46,602 bases of DNA from a virus. Its lineage: Duplodnaviria > Heunggongvirae > Uroviricota > Caudoviricetes. This document shows positions 4,299 to 13,141 of this stretch, piece after piece. The position numbers and the translations under genes were made by a program. The notes below the pieces were generated by a model. The model worked only from the letters and a program-made list of their open reading frames with translations, was not told the DNA's origin and did no database searches. Position 1 is the first letter of the stretch. Each line of letters starts with the position of its first letter. Location: the IMG/VR virus record IMGVR_UViG_2724679140_000012, one strand, 5' to 3'.

Positions 4299-4490
4299 CT
4301 ATTTCACCTTAATCTCAACATTTCGCAGCTTTAGCTCTACTGGCAGGTCTGACTTTCCTGTTAATGCTAATGCGAGATTTTCAGGAGTAATGAGAGCAGT
4401 TATTGTTTTCCCCATCTCCAGACGAATAATCATTCGTATCTCGCGATCGTCACATGCTCCTGGTCGAACAATTGATATTTGTCCGTTCAT
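4299..4490 (-). CDS. Hypothetical protein, 63 aa
   Basis: ATG at 4490-4488 preceded by AGGAGA within the repeated linker (see findings). Confidence 0.6.
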   Translation of the reverse strand: MNGQISIVRPGACDDREIRMIIRLEMGKTITALITPENLALALTGKSDLPVELKLRNVEIKVK

Positions 4491-4491
4491 C

Positions 4492-4989
4492 TCACTCTCC
4501 TTTGATGCGAATGCCAGTGGTACTCATTCTCCTGATTTCCCAGAGCACACGAGGAACACCACCGTTTCCGACCGGATCGCGTTTACTCCGCAGGGCGACG
4601 CTTGATTCCGCCCAGCTTTTTCTTGGAGGAAGCTCTTTCACACGAACAAAACCAGCTGCGCGGAGAGATGCTCCTGATTCATCTGCCTGGGTGTACGTAA
4701 TACAACGTTGATAACCCATAGCCTTTGCTGCCCGCCAGACAGCACCATAAAGCGCGCTGTTAGCGTTGCGTTCTCCTGTGGTACATGTGCGATTTACTTC
4801 AAGCGTTAATCCATCGTCCAAATGTCGTGCAACAGGTCTACCGGCTGTCGCCACACCTATCAATTCTCCGGCATCATTTCTCAGACCAATGCTGAATTTA
4901 TGCCCCACCGGGGGTTTATTGTGTCGGTGATGTCTGGATATAAACGCCTTCGCAACACGAAGAGTAACCGGTGAAATCTGCACTCTCAC
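4492..4989 (-). CDS. Hypothetical protein, 165 aa (GTG start)
   Basis: ORF starts GTG at 4989-4987 with AGGAGA 4-5 nt upstream; C-terminus GIRIKGE identical to the upstream gene's C-terminus. Confidence 0.65.
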   Translation of the reverse strand: MRVQISPVTLRVAKAFISRHHRHNKPPVGHKFSIGLRNDAGELIGVATAGRPVARHLDDGLTLEVNRTCTTGERNANSALYGAVWRAAKAMGYQRCITYTQADESGASLRAAGFVRVKELPPRKSWAESSVALRSKRDPVGNGGVPRVLWEIRRMSTTGIRIKGE

Positions 4990-5852
4990 TCTCCTTTGAT
5001 GCGAATGCCAGCAAGCCAGTTTCTTATGCCGATATATTCAGCGTTCCTGAAACCACTTTTTACATATATAAATGGCAAGCGAAGATTGTGACCATTGACT
5101 GCCAGGTAATCTTTACAACCCTGTTCGGTGAAACAGCAGGTAACGAATTCATCAATATCTTTCACAGCAACGCGCCGCCACTTTTCTGGTGGCTCTCGAA
5201 AGTTTTCGTGAAGTAGTTCGAGACGACGACTTTGGCGTTTATTGGCTTCATTGCCATCTTCATCAACCCAGACAATCCGGTCATAGTCATAATCAGCATC
5301 AACAACGATTTCGCGCTTTTGATACACACAAAACATAGGGTCTGACGTTATTCGATTATCCTGTGTTCGAATATTTTCACCGATGATGCCAAACGAATCT
5401 GGTGCAGATTTTGTCTGCAACTCTTCGATACGTTCAGCCATCGCAGCACACTCTTCAAAGTTGCTTAATGCTTTTCGCTCCCATTCAGCGCATTGTTTTC
5501 TAAGCTCTGCAATCAGCTTGTCTTTGCCTTCAAGCTCAACGCGCAGCTTCCCTACCGTTAGCGCAATATCCTCGTTCTCCTGATCGCGGCGTTTTATGTA
5601 TTGCTGGTTTCTTTCCCGTTCATCCAGCAGCGCCTGCACTACTTCAGGGTTGAAAGCTGCGATATAACGAGCATTAGCAGCAGCTTTTTTCTGTCCATCA
5701 AACCCAGGCCATTTGATAACATCTTCGCATCGTTTATCACCTGGCGTATGCACCGCATACGTACCAGTACCCGGCGAAATAAATGCGACCCATTCGCCCT
5801 GTGTTGCCTGTTTTGCTAACTCACGCAGTGCCTGATAGTCAATCTTGCTCAC
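4986..5852 (-). CDS. Ea22-like early-region protein, 288 aa
   Basis: N-terminus MSKIDYQALRELAKQATQGEW is the Ea22-family signature as I recall it; coiled-coil middle. Confidence 0.8.
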   Translation of the reverse strand: MSKIDYQALRELAKQATQGEWVAFISPGTGTYAVHTPGDKRCEDVIKWPGFDGQKKAAANARYIAAFNPEVVQALLDERERNQQYIKRRDQENEDIALTVGKLRVELEGKDKLIAELRKQCAEWERKALSNFEECAAMAERIEELQTKSAPDSFGIIGENIRTQDNRITSDPMFCVYQKREIVVDADYDYDRIVWVDEDGNEANKRQSRRLELLHENFREPPEKWRRVAVKDIDEFVTCCFTEQGCKDYLAVNGHNLRLPFIYVKSGFRNAEYIGIRNWLAGIRIKGE

Positions 5853-6520
5853 TGGTTGCCTCCTTTGCGAAGCTCTGCGGCGAACTCGTTAAGTGATATG
5901 TAGCAATCTCCAAATGTTAACGAACCGCTCGACTGCATATGCTCCATAGCCATCTCCACGCCCTGCGCCCGTACTTCAGCCAGGAAAGCATCTGTTGCCG
6001 GAGTTTCAGGAATCCGTCTCCTCATCCGTTCTACTGCATGATTGAACCCGAAGTCTTCCGCGAGAGATACGTCATCCATATTGTCATTGTCATCCTCAAT
6101 ATCCCGTGGTTCTGGAATTGCAGACTTTATTCCCGCATTCTCCGCCGCCAGCGCCGCGCGATTACCCTCCAGCTCTGCAATGCGCTGTTTTGCGGTATCA
6201 AGTTCAATCGATAATTTTTCCAACTGCTCTTTATGCTTCTTGTATTCCTGATATGCGTGCCAGGACTGACCTTTGCGCACACTATCAGTAATATCAGTAA
6301 TCTGTTCTGGTGTTAGCGTAGTCAGTGGCTGTGCTGGGAAAATCAGCACTTTCCCGGAATCCCAATCAAAACCAGCGTGAATTGACTGAACCTCAATTGA
6401 AGGTGTTGAACCAACGCTGCCAGGCGAATGAACAACGATCGTTACATCCATATCGCGACGATGGCTGTGGTTATTGGACAAAATACGATTCACCAACTCA
6501 GAAAATTTGGAGAATTTCAT
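5849..6520 (-). CDS. Hypothetical coiled-coil early protein (Ea22-like module), ~223 aa
   Basis: ATG at 6520-6518 with GAGG 6 nt upstream (the track's upstream start at 6532 is TTG); shares TDAFLAE(V/I)RA and ALAAENA motifs with ORF 6936..7544. Confidence 0.7.
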   Translation of the reverse strand: MKFSKFSELVNRILSNNHSHRRDMDVTIVVHSPGSVGSTPSIEVQSIHAGFDWDSGKVLIFPAQPLTTLTPEQITDITDSVRKGQSWHAYQEYKKHKEQLEKLSIELDTAKQRIAELEGNRAALAAENAGIKSAIPEPRDIEDDNDNMDDVSLAEDFGFNHAVERMRRRIPETPATDAFLAEVRAQGVEMAMEHMQSSGSLTFGDCYISLNEFAAELRKGGNQ

Positions 6521-6528
6521 GCGGAGCC

Positions 6529-6939
6529 TCAATATGCAAAATAGACAGTTGCCACACCGTTATAGTGATCAAACGATACGGCGTTTACTTCATAGCTGGC
6601 AGGAAGCTTCGAGCCGAGAACGTATCCGGGCCACGTTTTCCATGGAATTTCTCTACTCTCACTATCCCCATATACCGTACATCCAAGCGAACCTACAGCC
6701 TCGTCAGAACGTTTGCCGCATGTTATGAAACCTATATTTTTCTTGCTGGCCTTAATGGCGATTGGGTGAACACTGGCTGATGCATTGGCAGCACGCTGTG
6801 ACTGTTGGTTTGCGATATTCGCAGAGTTCGCAGCAGCTACAGCAGCCGTGGTCGCGGCGGTAGATGCCACAATAACTGCTGAAGCCTGCGCCTGTTGGGT
6901 AATGGTCAGCAATGCCGCCACAAAAATCATCTTCTTCAC
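6529..6939 (-). CDS. Exported hypothetical protein with cleavable signal peptide, 136 aa
   Basis: N-terminus [19 protein letters not shown] is a textbook Sec signal (K-rich n-region, hydrophobic core, AQA cleavage site); GTG start with GGAG 7 nt upstream; two Cys in mature part. Confidence 0.7.
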   Translation of the reverse strand: MKKMIFVAALLTITQQAQASAVIVASTAATTAAVAAANSANIANQQSQRAANASASVHPIAIKASKKNIGFITCGKRSDEAVGSLGCTVYGDSESREIPWKTWPGYVLGSKLPASYEVNAVSFDHYNGVATVYFAY

Positions 6940-7544
6940 TTGTCAGCTCCTTTGCGAATCTGTTCCGCCCATTCTTCAAGGGATTTCTCCGCATATTCAC
7001 CGGACAGGCCATCAATCGGGTGCGATTCATTAGCCAACTCTTCTTTCGCTGACAGAATCATGCGCGTAACGTCGAAAACTTCACGTAAAGACTTATTGAT
7101 AAATCCGTGGTTGAAAGCAGCAGCAAGACGGCTTGCGGTATAGTTAATCCCCTCGTTGCGAGCCTCCGCACGAATTTCAGCCAGGAAAGCATCGGTGACT
7201 GGGGGTTTGATTTCGTTAAGCGCATCACTGAATCCACCTCTCTCCATACCTAGCTCTGCTTCGTAATCGGCATCGAATGCAGCGTCTTTGCAGAACTTCT
7301 TCAGCTTTGCATTCTCCGCTGCCAGCGCCGAAAACTTCTCGTGTGCCAACTTAACAGCCGAATCAGCCTGCTTAATTGACTCAATCGCTTTCTGTTGGTC
7401 TTCGGACAGAGCTGAAATTTTGGCCTCCGCTTCAGCAAATTTACGCACCAGATATTCAGCGTTTGTTTCGTTAACCTTTAAATCTCGTGGGATGCATTTA
7501 CCTTTCAGAAATCCATCCATCTCAATTAGTGACATTTGTTTCAT
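6936..7544 (-). CDS. Hypothetical coiled-coil early protein (Ea22-like module), 202 aa
   Basis: ORF with coiled-coil heptads; shares [10 protein letters not shown] motif with ORF 5849..6520. Confidence 0.7.
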
Positions 7545-7723
7545 TTTTCCCCACTCCGTAACATCGCATTCAGATATTTGTTTTGATTCACTGATGGAAA
7601 AGAATTTATCTTAAGCAATTCCTCTATCGATGGCATTGGCTTTACGCGTTGGCGAATAATCATTTCTGCCGGAAGAATGCCGGGATTGTATGCAAGTCCT
7701 CTCATGGTAAATTCCTCAGTCAT
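7541..7723 (-). CDS. Possible small protein, ~60 aa (start uncertain)
   Basis: ATG immediately after the upstream stop; no convincing RBS; the track ORF 7541..7858 overlaps the upstream gene. Confidence 0.3.
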
Positions 7724-8012
7724 TACTGATAGCGCCATAACGTGAGCGGTAATTACGAAGGCGCGGGTCGATATATTCAGGGAAGTGGGTATATGTGGCT
7801 TTGCGGAATGGTCGGATTGATGTCTGGTAAATTCGCTCGCGTTCTTCTTTCTCTGCAAGCCATATACAATGGCGAAATTCCTTTTCCTCTTTCGTTTCCT
7901 GCGGTAGAGACATTATCCGGTCGTAGTTTTTTCTGAATTTATCCAGCACCTCCGATATGGAATTGCCGGAACAGCGGCGCGGGTCATCCGCACCATACAG
8001 AGGCGCTGGCAT
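7716..8012 (-). CDS. Hypothetical protein, 98 aa
   Basis: ATG at 8012-8010, weak AAGG upstream; basic C-terminus. Confidence 0.55.
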
Positions 8013-8035
8013 AATGGGAGCCTTATTTTCAATAA

Positions 8036-8623
8036 TCAGAAAGGAGGGTAATCGTTCTGGCTGTAACCATAATCATCTGCATGATTCTGGCTTACGTTTT
8101 TAGAGCGATTGTCTTTATCTTTGAGGCTGAAAACCATGTTGGCGATAGTTTCTGGTTGCTTGCCTTCCGCCTTTTCTTTAAGTGTTTGGCCTGTTTGTGC
8201 AATAAACGGGATGCGTATTTCCATCTGGTAACTGTCTGCACCAGTCTTTTTGTTTGTGGTTAATACTTTCTGTAGCACTAACCCGATTTTCTTTCCGTGA
8301 AACTCAGGAGCAACAAATTTACTGGCGGAAACCATATGCTGCGTTAATTGTCCAATCCCGGCACACCCCATCATGGCGTGAACGACATTTGCGCCAAATT
8401 TGTTTTCCGTTCCGTCATTTTTCTGAACACAGACGCTAAGATATTGGATTTTACGTCCGTCGTCGGATTCGCCAGAAAACTCAATAAATTTGGCTCCTTT
8501 TTCTGATTGCTTTAGTTCTGCTTCAGTAATGGTAATGATATGAGCGCCAGTTTCGTTAATAAAACCACCTTGCCCTGCGGTCAGTGCTGCTTCTTCGTTA
8601 TAAGTAAAAATCACGTTGCTCAT
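8036..8623 (-). CDS. Putative phage SSB-like protein (DUF669-type partner of Sak4), 195 aa
   Basis: Immediately downstream of and overlapping the Sak4-like gene; acidic C-terminal tail DDYGYSQNDYPPF resembles the SSB acidic tip; family assignment from memory. Confidence 0.55.
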   Translation of the reverse strand: MSNVIFTYNEEAALTAGQGGFINETGAHIITITEAELKQSEKGAKFIEFSGESDDGRKIQYLSVCVQKNDGTENKFGANVVHAMMGCAGIGQLTQHMVSASKFVAPEFHGKKIGLVLQKVLTTNKKTGADSYQMEIRIPFIAQTGQTLKEKAEGKQPETIANMVFSLKDKDNRSKNVSQNHADDYGYSQNDYPPF

Positions 8624-9300
8624 GCGGCGTTTTCCTTAATTTGATGAACATTATTGATGCCGTAGTAATCACAAACAGTGGCATCGACGAAAGAGAGATC
8701 GTTATCAATCTCATTGGAATCAAACATTCCCATTGGGGATTTAACAGTGTCTGCACCGTTGTTTTTCGTGGTGAAAAAGAACTGGTCATCGCGGGTAAGA
8801 GTGCGAAGAACTATAGTAAACATGCCTTCGACAGTGATTTTCTCGTCCAGCATTTTGCCGATAGTTTTCATTTTCACGCGCCCCATAGGGGTTTCTTCGG
8901 TGTGCGCAAGAAAATAGACTCTCAGGTCATCAGGTGCATCCTGTGCAGCCTTAATCACCTCCCATGCGTGGCGGCCTATCTCAGTAAATTTATCAAACGA
9001 TTTTTCTTCTGAGCGGCGCATAAACTCATTGCTCATCACATACTGGAAGTCATCAACAATAACGATTCTTTTCCCGTATTCGTGAGCACGCTTAATTACG
9101 GCAACTATTACGTCCCATTTGTCAGTGGTAACTACGGTTCCTTTTTTTGCTCTGGCATCCCATGCCAGCCAGTCTTTTGATTTAAATGGAAGCGGCTTGC
9201 CTATTGGTTTTATAAGTATTGCTTCCTCTGGATTGATATTTCTCATGCTGGTTGATTTTCCGGTGCCAGACTCACCGAGTATTAATGTCGCAGTTCCCAT
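8620..9300 (-). CDS. Sak4-like RecA-fold ATPase (single-strand annealing recombinase), 226 aa
   Basis: Walker A GESGTGKST near N-terminus and Walker-B-like hydrophobic stretch ending in DD; occupies the recombination slot where Red genes sit in lambda. Confidence 0.7.
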   Translation of the reverse strand: MGTATLILGESGTGKSTSMRNINPEEAILIKPIGKPLPFKSKDWLAWDARAKKGTVVTTDKWDVIVAVIKRAHEYGKRIVIVDDFQYVMSNEFMRRSEEKSFDKFTEIGRHAWEVIKAAQDAPDDLRVYFLAHTEETPMGRVKMKTIGKMLDEKITVEGMFTIVLRTLTRDDQFFFTTKNNGADTVKSPMGMFDSNEIDNDLSFVDATVCDYYGINNVHQIKENAA

Positions 9301-9961: not shown

Positions 9962-10585
9962 TTATGCGACCTCGGAAGGAAGTCCAATCATCTTATTCAA
10001 ATCTTCTACCCGTAAAGCAGGAAGTGCTGCACTTGCTTTATCTGCTTCTTTTGGTAGCAACTCTTTGCTTTCAGGCCAGACCTCAATAAGTCGCTTAACT
10101 GTTGTGACTGAGTTCAAAGCAGCCCATACATTTGATTCGATATCCTTTTTCCTGGCTTCAAGTTTTTGTTGCAATGCGCAGATTTCATCAAACCTTTTTG
10201 TTATTTTGTGTTCTGCGTCAAACATGCATTTATCTTGGTCGGGGGTAGGGAGCAATATATCTTCACCGTTGCCGTCTTTTCCGTATGAATGCCAGCCAAC
10301 CCTTCTTCCTGATACAGTCAGATAAATCGAACTTGAACGGGCATCGCATGAGTAAAATGAACATCCCAGCTTTTCAAGTTCTTCGCTTATAGCCATTAAC
10401 TTGGATGCCAGCTGGTCCACTTCCTCAGTTTTCTTTTTCCCGCCAAACGCAACAACTCTGGCATCAAGTGCAAGCTGGTTCTTTAACTTTGTTACTTCTT
10501 CAAGTTCAGTGAATACCCCGGACTTAATTAAAGCGTTGCGTGCTATTACTTCTTTTATTGTCGTAGTTAAGCGGATTGATGACAT
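9962..10585 (-). CDS. Hypothetical protein, 207 aa
   Basis: ATG at 10585-10583 with GAGAGGA upstream; the track's longer ORF has an N-terminal extension without RBS. Confidence 0.7.
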   Translation of the reverse strand: MSSIRLTTTIKEVIARNALIKSGVFTELEEVTKLKNQLALDARVVAFGGKKKTEEVDQLASKLMAISEELEKLGCSFYSCDARSSSIYLTVSGRRVGWHSYGKDGNGEDILLPTPDQDKCMFDAEHKITKRFDEICALQQKLEARKKDIESNVWAALNSVTTVKRLIEVWPESKELLPKEADKASAALPALRVEDLNKMIGLPSEVA

Positions 10586-10721
10586 ATTAATTCCTCTCAA
10601 ATAAGTGGTTTGCTGCCTAATTTCATTTTCTGGCGACCAACACAAGTCACACCCATTTCACTGCGTGGCTTGCGGTAGTAAATACGGTTATTTATGTCAT
10701 TAAAAACCAGCATGAGCGTGG

Positions 10722-10990: not shown

Positions 10991-11299
10991 CTATCTCGCC
11001 GTAATTGATTTCATTGACCTGTAACCAGCAGCATACAGTGCAACTTCAGGCAAACAAACGCTTCCGCCATTCGCATCTGTATTTGATTTACTGATGATGC
11101 CGAGTGATATTGCTTTTTCAGAAAGACTTAAACGCTTTCTCGGTTCTTCCTGAACAGCTTCCTCACTGTCTGTGCCGAAGATCGAATCGATGATGTTGCA
11201 GATGGAATCACGCTCGATAGCCAGCTTTCTGCGCCGCTCATGACGGCGAGTTTTGGCATTTCCTGCAAATGTTGATTTTCCGTACACGATTACCGTCAT
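10991..11299 (-). CDS. N: N-type transcription antiterminator, P22 gene-24-like
   Basis: N-terminal arginine-rich motif GNAKTRRHERRRKLAIERD matches the P22 N ARM peptide; ATG at 11299-11297 with GAGGAA 6 nt upstream; matching boxB upstream. Confidence 0.9.
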   Translation of the reverse strand: MTVIVYGKSTFAGNAKTRRHERRRKLAIERDSICNIIDSIFGTDSEEAVQEEPRKRLSLSEKAISLGIISKSNTDANGGSVCLPEVALYAAGYRSMKSITAR

Positions 11300-11418
11300 G
11301 ATGTTTTCCTCATGTGAAATGGCTTTGGTGGTGATGCGCCAGGTGCTGATCTTCTGGTTGCTGTCGTTGCAGCTGCAATTCACATCACCGCCAAACCCAT
11401 CTCGTTTGGTATCTGTTT

Positions 11419-12433: not shown

Positions 12434-13141
12434 TCACGAATTTTTCAGCCACTCCCTTGCCTCGATGTCATCCAGATGACGAGATTGCTTCAGAATACCA
12501 GCCACATACTCCACCTTTGCTACTTGATGATAAGGCAACGTTATTGGCCTGTGGTCTTGGTTGATGCTTGTAAACTGGTATTCTCCATCTCTGTCATAGC
12601 CAAGAATCTTGATCATGTTGTGTCCTTCGATGGTTCTGACAAACACCTCATCACCCGGGAAGACTTTGGTGTTAGGCTCAATGAGTACATATTCTCCTGA
12701 TTTTATTCTGGGCCACATGCTGTCTCCTTTCACACGAAGACCAAAGGCATCAGGATCATCGCTATAAATTTTGAGCCACCCATCGCGCTCTTCGGTCATC
12801 TCGATGGCACCATCAACACCAAGAATTGCCTCACCAACCACGCGCACTAACCCTTTTTTTAATTTGCCAACAAATGAAAGAGTATCTTCATCATTCGCTC
12901 CATTTAACGAAGTGCCGTGCTGAAGCCAAACAACATCAACGTTTAGAAATTTCGCAAGCGCATTCATTTTTTCCTGACGCGGTAAAGACTCAGCATTAAA
13001 CCATTTGCTAACGCCTTTGGACGAAAGAGAAAGGGCACGGGCTATGGCCATCCCCCTACCATGTTCATCAAGACCAGCTTCTTTACAGGCTTGCGCTAGC
13101 CGCTGGGCGAATTCTTTGCGCACTTTTTCATTCTGAACCAT
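12434..13141 (-). CDS. cI: CI-type prophage repressor (HTH + S24 LexA-like peptidase domain), 235 aa
   Basis: C-terminal GDSMWPRIKSGEYVLIEP autocleavage-domain motif; N-terminal HTH; divergent from cro across an operator region. Confidence 0.9.
   Translation of the reverse strand: MVQNEKVRKEFAQRLAQACKEAGLDEHGRGMAIARALSLSSKGVSKWFNAESLPRQEKMNALAKFLNVDVVWLQHGTSLNGANDEDTLSFVGKLKKGLVRVVGEAILGVDGAIEMTEERDGWLKIYSDDPDAFGLRVKGDSMWPRIKSGEYVLIEPNTKVFPGDEVFVRTIEGHNMIKILGYDRDGEYQFTSINQDHRPITLPYHQVAKVEYVAGILKQSRHLDDIEAREWLKNS

Follow-up and report, generated by a model that had tools for sequence, protein, structure and literature searches.

We analyzed a 46,602-nucleotide (nt) stretch of DNA from a virus of the class Caudoviricetes (IMG/VR record IMGVR_UViG_2724679140_000012), referred to here as the window, with attention to a minus-strand open reading frame (ORF) at positions 6529-6939. 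An earlier note on this DNA had described the frame as the source of a 136-amino-acid (aa) exported protein in the middle of an early-left operon, and the ORF does translate to exactly the sequence quoted there. The same strand carries genes for a cI-type repressor, an N antiterminator, the anti-RecBCD protein Abc2, three Ea22-like proteins, and an integrase, which identifies the surroundings as the pL operon of a lambdoid prophage and bears out the placement given in that note (Table 1). As set out below, the frame is almost certainly a real gene, its product is very probably exported to the periplasm, and it belongs to a small sequence family, PHROG 8805, that has been exchanged as a single gene among unrelated phages of the Enterobacterales. 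We tentatively interpret the product as an early periplasmic effector that would protect the envelope of the infected cell.

Several observations support translation of the ORF. As read directly from the sequence, the GTG start and the TGA stop of the Ea22-like gene upstream overlap as GTGA, and a Shine-Dalgarno (SD) motif precedes the start. Both the SD and the GTG are kept in seven homologous loci from four phage types (L001, L002, and L005-L009), with an AAGGAG(G/A) motif 6-8 nt 5' of the GTG in all seven. In the copy carried by Escherichia phage Av-05, the only nearby in-frame ATG (codon 4) is replaced by ATC, leaving GTG as the sole available start. Together these features answer the doubt, raised in the earlier note, as to whether the GTG start is used. 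The ratio of nonsynonymous to synonymous substitution rates (dN/dS, calculated by the Nei-Gojobori method) against prophage homologues was 0.11-0.18 for the whole ORF, 0.05-0.14 for the C-terminal domain (residues 67-136), and 0.25-0.5 for the linker that precedes it. These low values place the ORF under purifying selection, and the retention of signal peptide architecture in 34 of 34 diverse relatives goes beyond what chance would produce. The overlapping plus-strand frames in the ORF list are by-products of the exported-protein frame.

Table 1. Features of the exported-protein gene and of its surroundings in the window (positions in window coordinates)
Feature	Position	Strand	Description	Basis
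Exported-protein ORF	6529..6939	minus	136 codons; GTG start at 6937-6939, TGA stop at 6529-6531	ORF list; PHROG 8805 member
Shine-Dalgarno motif	6947..6952	minus	AAGGAG, 7 nt 5' of the GTG start	Direct reading of sequence
Putative mobile cassette	6510..6953	minus	444 bp; SD, ORF, and 19 nt	blastn of window against L006-L009
Predicted signal peptide	6883..6939	minus	Residues 1-19; MKK / MIFVAALLTIT / QQAQA	Hydropathy profile and family conservation
Low-complexity tether	6742..6882	minus	Residues 20-66; 17/47 Ala, with Ser, Thr, and Asn also enriched	Composition
Conserved C-terminal domain	6532..6741	minus	Residues 67-136	Family alignments, AlphaFold2, dN/dS
Cys-bounded loop	6679..6720	minus	Cys74 (6718-6720) and Cys87 (6679-6681)	Invariant alignment columns
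Upstream Ea22-like gene	6936..7544	minus	202 aa; stop overlaps exported-protein start	PHROGs 14548/614/368
Downstream Ea22-like gene	5849..6520	minus	ORF 5849-6532	Pfam Ead_Ea22, E 1.6e-8
Next Ea22-like gene	4986-5852	minus		Pfam Ead_Ea22, E 5e-36
Abc2	7716-8012	minus	Anti-RecBCD	
N antiterminator	10991-11383	minus		
cI-type repressor	12434-13141	minus		
Lambda-type integrase	1419-2489	minus	Arm-DNA-binding domain	

The N terminus of the protein has the layout of a tripartite signal for the Sec pathway and signal peptidase I, as judged by rules. A basic n-region (MKK) is followed by an 11-residue hydrophobic core (MIFVAALLTIT) and a c-region (QQAQA) with alanine at positions -3 and -1, and cleavage is predicted after residue 19 (AQA|SA). 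All 34 diverse family members have a basic n-region, a hydrophobic core of 9-18 residues, and a small-x-small site at about residues 19-23. The signal sequences themselves have diverged across the family while this architecture persists, so that export, rather than the sequence, appears to be what selection maintains. Others have read the family in the same way: a member appears in one source as "Prophage exported protein," and a signal peptide had been annotated on a family member by the KLB16 authors. The textbook signal peptide claimed in the earlier note thus stands, and export of the window protein to the periplasm is very probable.

We found no lipobox in the window protein, which has no cysteine before residue 74, and a lipoprotein or Cor-like identity was rejected for this reason. 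A subfamily of 134-142 aa (loci L010-L013) differs in this region, displaying a lipobox-like MLSAC in P0057, P0079, and P0082 and MLSAS at the same position in P0098, P0100, and P0102. Depending on whether Cys or Ser is present, the product could be a lipoprotein or a soluble periplasmic protein.

Beyond the predicted cleavage site, the mature protein is divided between a low-complexity stretch and a conserved domain. The former is rich in Ala, Thr, Ser, Asn, and Gln in the window protein; across the family its length and sequence vary, with insertions and deletions, and in distant homologues it is short, Pro-rich, and hydrophilic. Because a hydrophilic Pro-rich linker takes its place in those distant members, the sequence comparison identifies it as a tether rather than a membrane segment. 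A second transmembrane segment within the Ala-rich stretch was considered and rejected, the stretch being unconserved and, in distant homologues, hydrophilic.

The C-terminal domain follows the consensus GF[IV]TCG-x(8-13)-SLGC ... IP[WY]..[WYFL]PGYxLG..[LI]PASYxV..[IV]SFDxYN..AT[VI]YFxY and usually terminates exactly at the last Tyr. Its two cysteines, Cys74 and Cys87, are the only ones in the window protein and are both in the mature part, as the earlier note had pointed out. They are also invariant in the family: each of the 34 diverse members has exactly two cysteines in the mature domain, 11-15 residues apart, and the interior of the loop between them differs from one subfamily to another. 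The pair presumably forms a disulfide bond in the periplasm.

An AlphaFold2 model of the full-length protein, made with a shallow alignment (relatives at ≥74% identity), had a mean predicted local distance difference test score (pLDDT) of 49.5, with low values in the linker. For residues 57-136, modeled with a diverse alignment of 37 sequences, the pLDDT was 87 and the predicted template modeling score (pTM) was 0.74. The predicted topology of the domain is β-β-β-β-α-β-β, comprising strands IGFITC, EAV, GCTVY, and SREIP, then a short helix (WPGYVLGSK), and then strands EVNAVSFD and VATVYFA. By this topology the two cysteines would lie at the ends of the first hairpin, a placement consistent with a disulfide clamp. 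A Foldseek search of the PDB gave a best E value of 0.17 and no match supporting homology, the corresponding search of BFVD returned a family member alone, and a profile search of PDB sequences found nothing below E 0.89. The predicted fold could be new, or it could be a divergent small α/β unit.

The window protein matched PHROG 8805 with an E value of 7.4e-86 (286 bits), residues 1-136 aligning with positions 1-136 of the 136-position profile. Divergent relatives that were tested matched the same profile at E 1e-17 to 6e-45 and no other meaningful PHROG, so membership of this sequence family is clear by profile comparison. PHROG 8805 is without functional annotation. Scans of the window protein against Pfam, NCBIfam, and PADLOC gave no match; the PADLOC-DB defense profiles returned zero families for the exported protein and six neighbors at E values up to 0.01; and a Pfam scan of the 37 aligned members at E values up to 10 yielded low-complexity noise only (New_glue and Alanine_zipper). 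A literature search on Ea22 together with signal peptides found nothing relevant.

Database searches indicate that the family is small and confined to phages of the Enterobacterales. Word-indexed searching of 5.8 billion proteins gave 56 clusters, every one from Escherichia, Salmonella, Shigella, or Citrobacter. When 1.84 billion representatives were scanned exhaustively by HMMER with the last 80 residues of the protein, 19 matches came up, about 10 of them real; long eukaryotic repeat proteins (P0063, P0065, P0068-P0073, and P0075) were dismissed as repetitive sequence spuriously matching the GF[IV]xCG region. A profile search widened the family to 103 clusters, which include the 134-142-aa subfamily, often seen on P1-like phage-plasmids, along with proteins of 109-122 aa encoded by contigs of ~45 kb.

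The gene is rare. Of 5426 complete E. coli genomes, 63 carry it, at 46 places on chromosomes and 19 on plasmids, as do 5 of 50,697 phage records. Its settings are nonetheless of several kinds. Apart from the lambdoid early-left operons of the window and L005, it occurs on circular plasmids of ~92-97 kb that carry Ref, Icd, Ash, tail, and baseplate genes, and those bearing the 134-aa subfamily additionally carry Hot-like theta, HumD-like S24 peptidase, and Phd/Doc-like genes; from this gene content we infer that they are P1-like phage-plasmids. In Mu-like prophages it lies between DUF2786/Gp11_C genes and gp16 (GemA)/Mor, a slot likewise occupied by family members at a mere 36-43% identity. The syntenic slot of phage Mu contains no exported protein, gp12, gp13, and gp14 having no signal peptide. 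Further carriers are Av-05, a virulent Escherichia phage of the rV5-like Vequintavirinae (L002, 71536-71946), and 45-kb phages of E. coli and Klebsiella, in which the gene adjoins that for a Dcm methylase just upstream of terminase. Av-05 is virulent, which is not known of the 45-kb phages. No neighboring gene is conserved across these different contexts.

The extent of the shared DNA was informative. Homology of the window with the Mu-like prophages L006-L009 was confined by blastn to positions 6953-6510, at 87-89% identity. Because this homology stops at the SD, the ORF, and 19 nt, the alignments mark a single gene as the unit of exchange.

Two other copies deserve mention in their own right. 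The Av-05 copy has 87% DNA identity and only 75% protein identity to the window gene, and it evolves faster, with dN/dS of 0.46 for the domain and ~1.1 for the linker. The pattern suggests that Av-05 acquired the gene recently from a temperate phage and that its evolution since then has been relaxed or adaptive. The copy on the P1-like plasmid NZ_CP031917.1 (L001, region 73363-91773) is intact and 100% identical, and it sits behind a truncated Ea22-like fragment; many of its neighbors are annotated as pseudogenes with frameshifts or truncations (Ref, Rha, DUF7446, PAPS reductase, Ea22, and ASCH).

Within the window, the exported-protein gene lies between Ea22-like genes on both sides, as the earlier note had it. 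The downstream gene is recognized by Pfam and has a probable ATG start at 6520, 9 nt past the exported-protein stop, as in the RefSeq homologue at L005. The upstream gene has no Pfam match and proved to be a paralogue by PHROG and BLASTP comparison: it shares PHROGs 614/368/492 with Ea22-like genes, it is 32% identical to the product of ORF 5849-6532 over its own C-terminal module, and a RefSeq plasmid contains an equivalent with the annotation ead/Ea22-like.

Because the start codon overlaps the upstream stop, translation is likely to be coupled to that of the preceding Ea22-like gene; at the Mu-like loci, the stop codon of the gene upstream falls within the SD. A consensus scan of the minus strand from 4964 to 8694 detected no sigma-70-like promoter and no intrinsic terminator, the scan being a crude one that weak signals could escape. 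The GC content of the gene is 0.494 versus 0.457 for the early-left region, the excess being due to the Ala-rich linker, and at third codon positions (GC3) it is 0.453 versus 0.41-0.47 in the neighbors. With no promoter or terminator of its own detected, a coupled start, ordinary GC, a homologue in the virulent phage Av-05, and locations in early regions that are repressed in the lysogen, expression with the early lytic transcript, and not from the resting prophage, is probable.

Some further features of the region were recorded. A 28-nt exact direct repeat (TCTCACTCTCCTTTGATGCGAATGCCAG) at 4490-4517 and 4984-5011 brackets a 165-aa gene at 4492-4989, which has a weak, sub-threshold match to the Pfam Mom family (E 8.6e-5). 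The repeat encodes a C-terminal ...GIRIKGE* common to this gene and the Ea22-like gene at 4986-5852, and it resembles a recombination "boundary sequence" through which a one-gene cassette was brought in. A second direct repeat, of 56 nt and 71% identity, at 5842-5897 and 6929-6984, corresponds to the 3' ends of two Ea22-like genes and brackets the exported-protein gene together with the second Ea22-like gene; such homologous 3' ends may have been the crossover points that brought the cassette in. Farther along the early-left region, a 227-aa gene on the minus strand at 9962-10645, placed between N and recombination/ATPase genes, matches Pfam Nmad5 (nucleotide modification associated domain 5; E 4e-69), a domain about which little is understood. 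At the left window edge, a minus-strand pectinesterase-family ORF (1-1284), which may be cut there, adjoins the integrase. We take this ORF to be host flank, ybhC-like, and the prophage is probably at or near the classical lambda attachment site.

The mechanism that we favor would run as follows. Translation would begin at the GTG, coupled to the upstream Ea22-like gene in the pL operon, and residues 1-19 would route the product through the Sec translocon. Signal peptidase I would then cut between residues 19 and 20, freeing a soluble mature protein of ~117 aa in the periplasm, where DsbA presumably oxidizes the two invariant cysteines and closes the 12-residue loop. The result would be a compact 70-aa α/β domain hanging from a flexible Ala-rich tether. 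Its cassette would have been exchanged among lambdoid, Mu-like, P1-like, rV5-like, and 45-kb enterobacterial phages, always amid early accessory genes. Made early in the lytic cycle, the protein may bind some conserved component of the enterobacterial envelope or periplasm, or else a part of incoming virions that is conserved, and the infected or induced cell could thereby be shielded from secondary infection or outside damage. It is possible that the protein, like T4 Spackle or P1 Sim but with an unrelated fold, excludes superinfecting phage at the step of crossing the periplasm. Since the gene appears to have been independently acquired by at least five unrelated phage lineages, including a virulent one, its function should be useful whatever the receptor, tail type, or lifestyle. 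Among the functions considered, superinfection exclusion or envelope protection of the infected cell ranks first, tentatively and by analogy with known systems; for the overall explanation, an early periplasmic effector protecting the envelope, we would put the probability at roughly one in three (0.35).

Several points weigh against this explanation. Neither PADLOC, Pfam, and NCBIfam nor the structure searches disclosed sequence or fold similarity to a known exclusion or defense protein, and a literature search by PHROG identifier, member accession numbers, and "prophage exported protein" found no paper on any member. The export call is derived from a rule-based n/h/c layout and its conservation across the family, and the crude promoter and terminator scan leaves room for a weak internal promoter. 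A receptor-specific block is unlikely, as the carrier phages differ in their receptors and injection routes. Additionally, the strong purifying selection on the C-terminal domain is unlike what an arms race against variable phage proteins would leave. A conserved host target accounts better for the very low dN/dS there, and that would suit rival explanations too.

The rival that gains most from this is a periplasmic modulator of host envelope physiology, made for the phage's own cycle. Here the protein would bind and inhibit or activate a conserved enterobacterial enzyme or sensor, such as the protease DegP, DegS, or Prc, a peptidoglycan hydrolase, or an envelope-stress sensor, with the effect of stabilizing the envelope or setting the timing of lysis. 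The selection on the C-terminal domain suggests a conserved and probably host target, and on this account the exclusion and host-modulator readings are close in rank. Restriction of the family to Enterobacterales phages points the same way, as does its occurrence in a virulent phage, for which lysogenic conversion has no meaning; a loop closed by a disulfide and variable inside would also be a common inhibitor design. The candidate link to host proteins of the DUF1471 family failed, however (hhalign probability 2.3%, with the last hairpin alone aligned), and none of the 37 members has a Pfam match. The rarity of the gene in E. coli genomes and phage records implies that it is dispensable for all these phage types, and it lies in early regions, not in lysis cassettes, with no conserved lysis-gene neighborhood. 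On balance we hold a modulator to be possible but doubtful. Less likely is the suggestion of the earlier note that the gene is a moron acting at the envelope, that is, a lysogenic-conversion gene expressed from the resting prophage, whose product would alter the surface for exclusion, serum resistance, or colonization to the benefit of the lysogen. Part of that suggestion holds: the gene is accessory and a horizontally mobile single-gene unit, its predicted product is exported, action at the envelope is a natural inference, and its carriers are mostly prophages and phage-plasmids of pathogenic and commensal E. coli and Salmonella. What does not hold is autonomous expression from the prophage, and with it the label. 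The consensus scan gave the gene neither promoter nor terminator, its start is tied to the upstream stop here as the SD is in Mu-like loci, its GC and GC3 match those of the operon, it sits within operons repressed in lysogens (lambdoid pL and the Mu-like early region), and one copy belongs to the virulent Av-05.

Alternatively, the protein might be a periplasmic counter-defense or anti-exclusion factor directed at an envelope barrier, for instance a periplasmic nuclease or a DNA-entry gatekeeper, and would help co-infecting or progeny phage or the replication of an induced phage. Its early accessory neighbors include anti-host functions (Abc2 in the window, Dcm methylase in the 45-kb phages, and the Gam/Kil regions of Mu-like prophages), and it is spread over unrelated phage types, as anti-defense genes often are. 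Periplasmic defenses against DNA entry do exist (PMC13128918). A protein made after entry cannot, on the other hand, protect the passage of its own genome through the periplasm, and we observed neither homology to a known anti-defense protein nor association with a particular defense system; this explanation strikes us as improbable. A similarly low probability attaches to a different topology, compatible with any of these functions, in which the N terminus is an uncleaved type II signal-anchor in the inner membrane or, in some relatives, the signal of a lipoprotein. Directly past the predicted cleavage site, the segment SAVIVASTAATTAAVAAA shows mild hydrophobicity (Kyte-Doolittle mean over 19 residues, up to 1.7), and the lipobox-like LSAC is present in part of the 134-aa subfamily (P0057, P0079, and P0082). 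Yet the hydrophobic core spans only 9-18 residues in all members, with a canonical A-x-A site after it, and the Ala-rich stretch gives way to a hydrophilic Pro-rich linker in distant homologues. As for a lipoprotein, the window protein has no Cys in its signal, hence no lipobox, and LSAC is polymorphic with LSAS inside the same subfamily.

The early periplasmic effector that we favor would matter because few periplasm-acting phage proteins are understood, mainly T4 Spackle and RI, P1 Sim, and the Cor/Llp lipoproteins. PHROG 8805 is compact and strongly conserved and has a confident structural model, which makes it an experimentally tractable candidate for a generic periplasmic phage function. 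If its members block secondary infection or manipulate an envelope component, they would point to a generic weak point in the crossing of the enterobacterial envelope by phages, which would bear on host range in phage therapy and on the resistance that prophages confer in pathogenic E. coli and Salmonella. If there is no such effect, this is one more small accessory protein.

Comparison with known systems helps to delimit the family. In the Hendrix/Juhala description, what defines a moron is a promoter and a terminator of its own and, often, a deviant GC content. The window gene resembles the lambdoid morons bor and lom in being an accessory, non-essential, exchanged single gene with an envelope-located product, but none of these attributes was seen for it. 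Cor (φ80/T1/N15) and Llp (T5) are likewise small, exported, phage-encoded envelope proteins and bring about receptor-blocking exclusion, and distant homologues of the window protein occur in the 45-kb siphophages. Cor and Llp are lipoproteins with a lipobox cysteine, whereas the window protein has an A-x-A signal peptidase I site and no cysteine in its signal, and no PADLOC or PHROG cross-match connected them. The diversity of receptors used by the carrier phages argues against a single-receptor blocker of this type. DUF1471/YhcN proteins (BhsA, McbA, YjfN, YdgH, and SrfN) are small enterobacterial periplasmic stress proteins, and a sequence relationship to them found no support in an hhalign comparison with six E. 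coli K-12 paralogues, which aligned just 19 columns; Pfam PF07338 matched none of the 37 members at E values up to 10. They are without the N-terminal disulfide-closed hairpin and the conserved Cys pair, and the helix in the window domain is about half the length of theirs.

The closest functional analogy is with T4 Spackle, an early gene product that, after signal cleavage, is a 75-aa periplasmic protein with one disulfide and blocks the tail lysozyme of superinfecting phage (PMC7677548). The likeness lies in size class, predicted compartment, a single Cys pair, and early expression context. The two share no sequence similarity and are not of one family: Spackle is a flat α-helical bundle, compared with the ββββαββ topology predicted here, and its target is the gp5 tail lysozyme of T-even phages, while PHROG 8805 is found in phages with unrelated tails and has a long low-complexity tether that sets it apart. 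By sequence comparison, then, the protein is not in the Spackle, Cor/Llp, DUF1471, or any PADLOC family. More speculatively, and with a probability no higher than that of the modulator, PHROG 8805 could be a previously unrecognized class of periplasmic effector with its own fold, a disulfide-closed hairpin and small α/β unit on a flexible tether, that acts on a conserved periplasmic step of infection or of envelope maintenance by a mechanism unlike those of Spackle, Sim, Cor/Llp, and Imm. Such a mechanism could, for example, block the tail-tip or ejected proteins or the DNA of many unrelated phages in the periplasm. Set beside all of these systems, the window protein is a small exported phage accessory protein with an unusually broad distribution across phage lineages.

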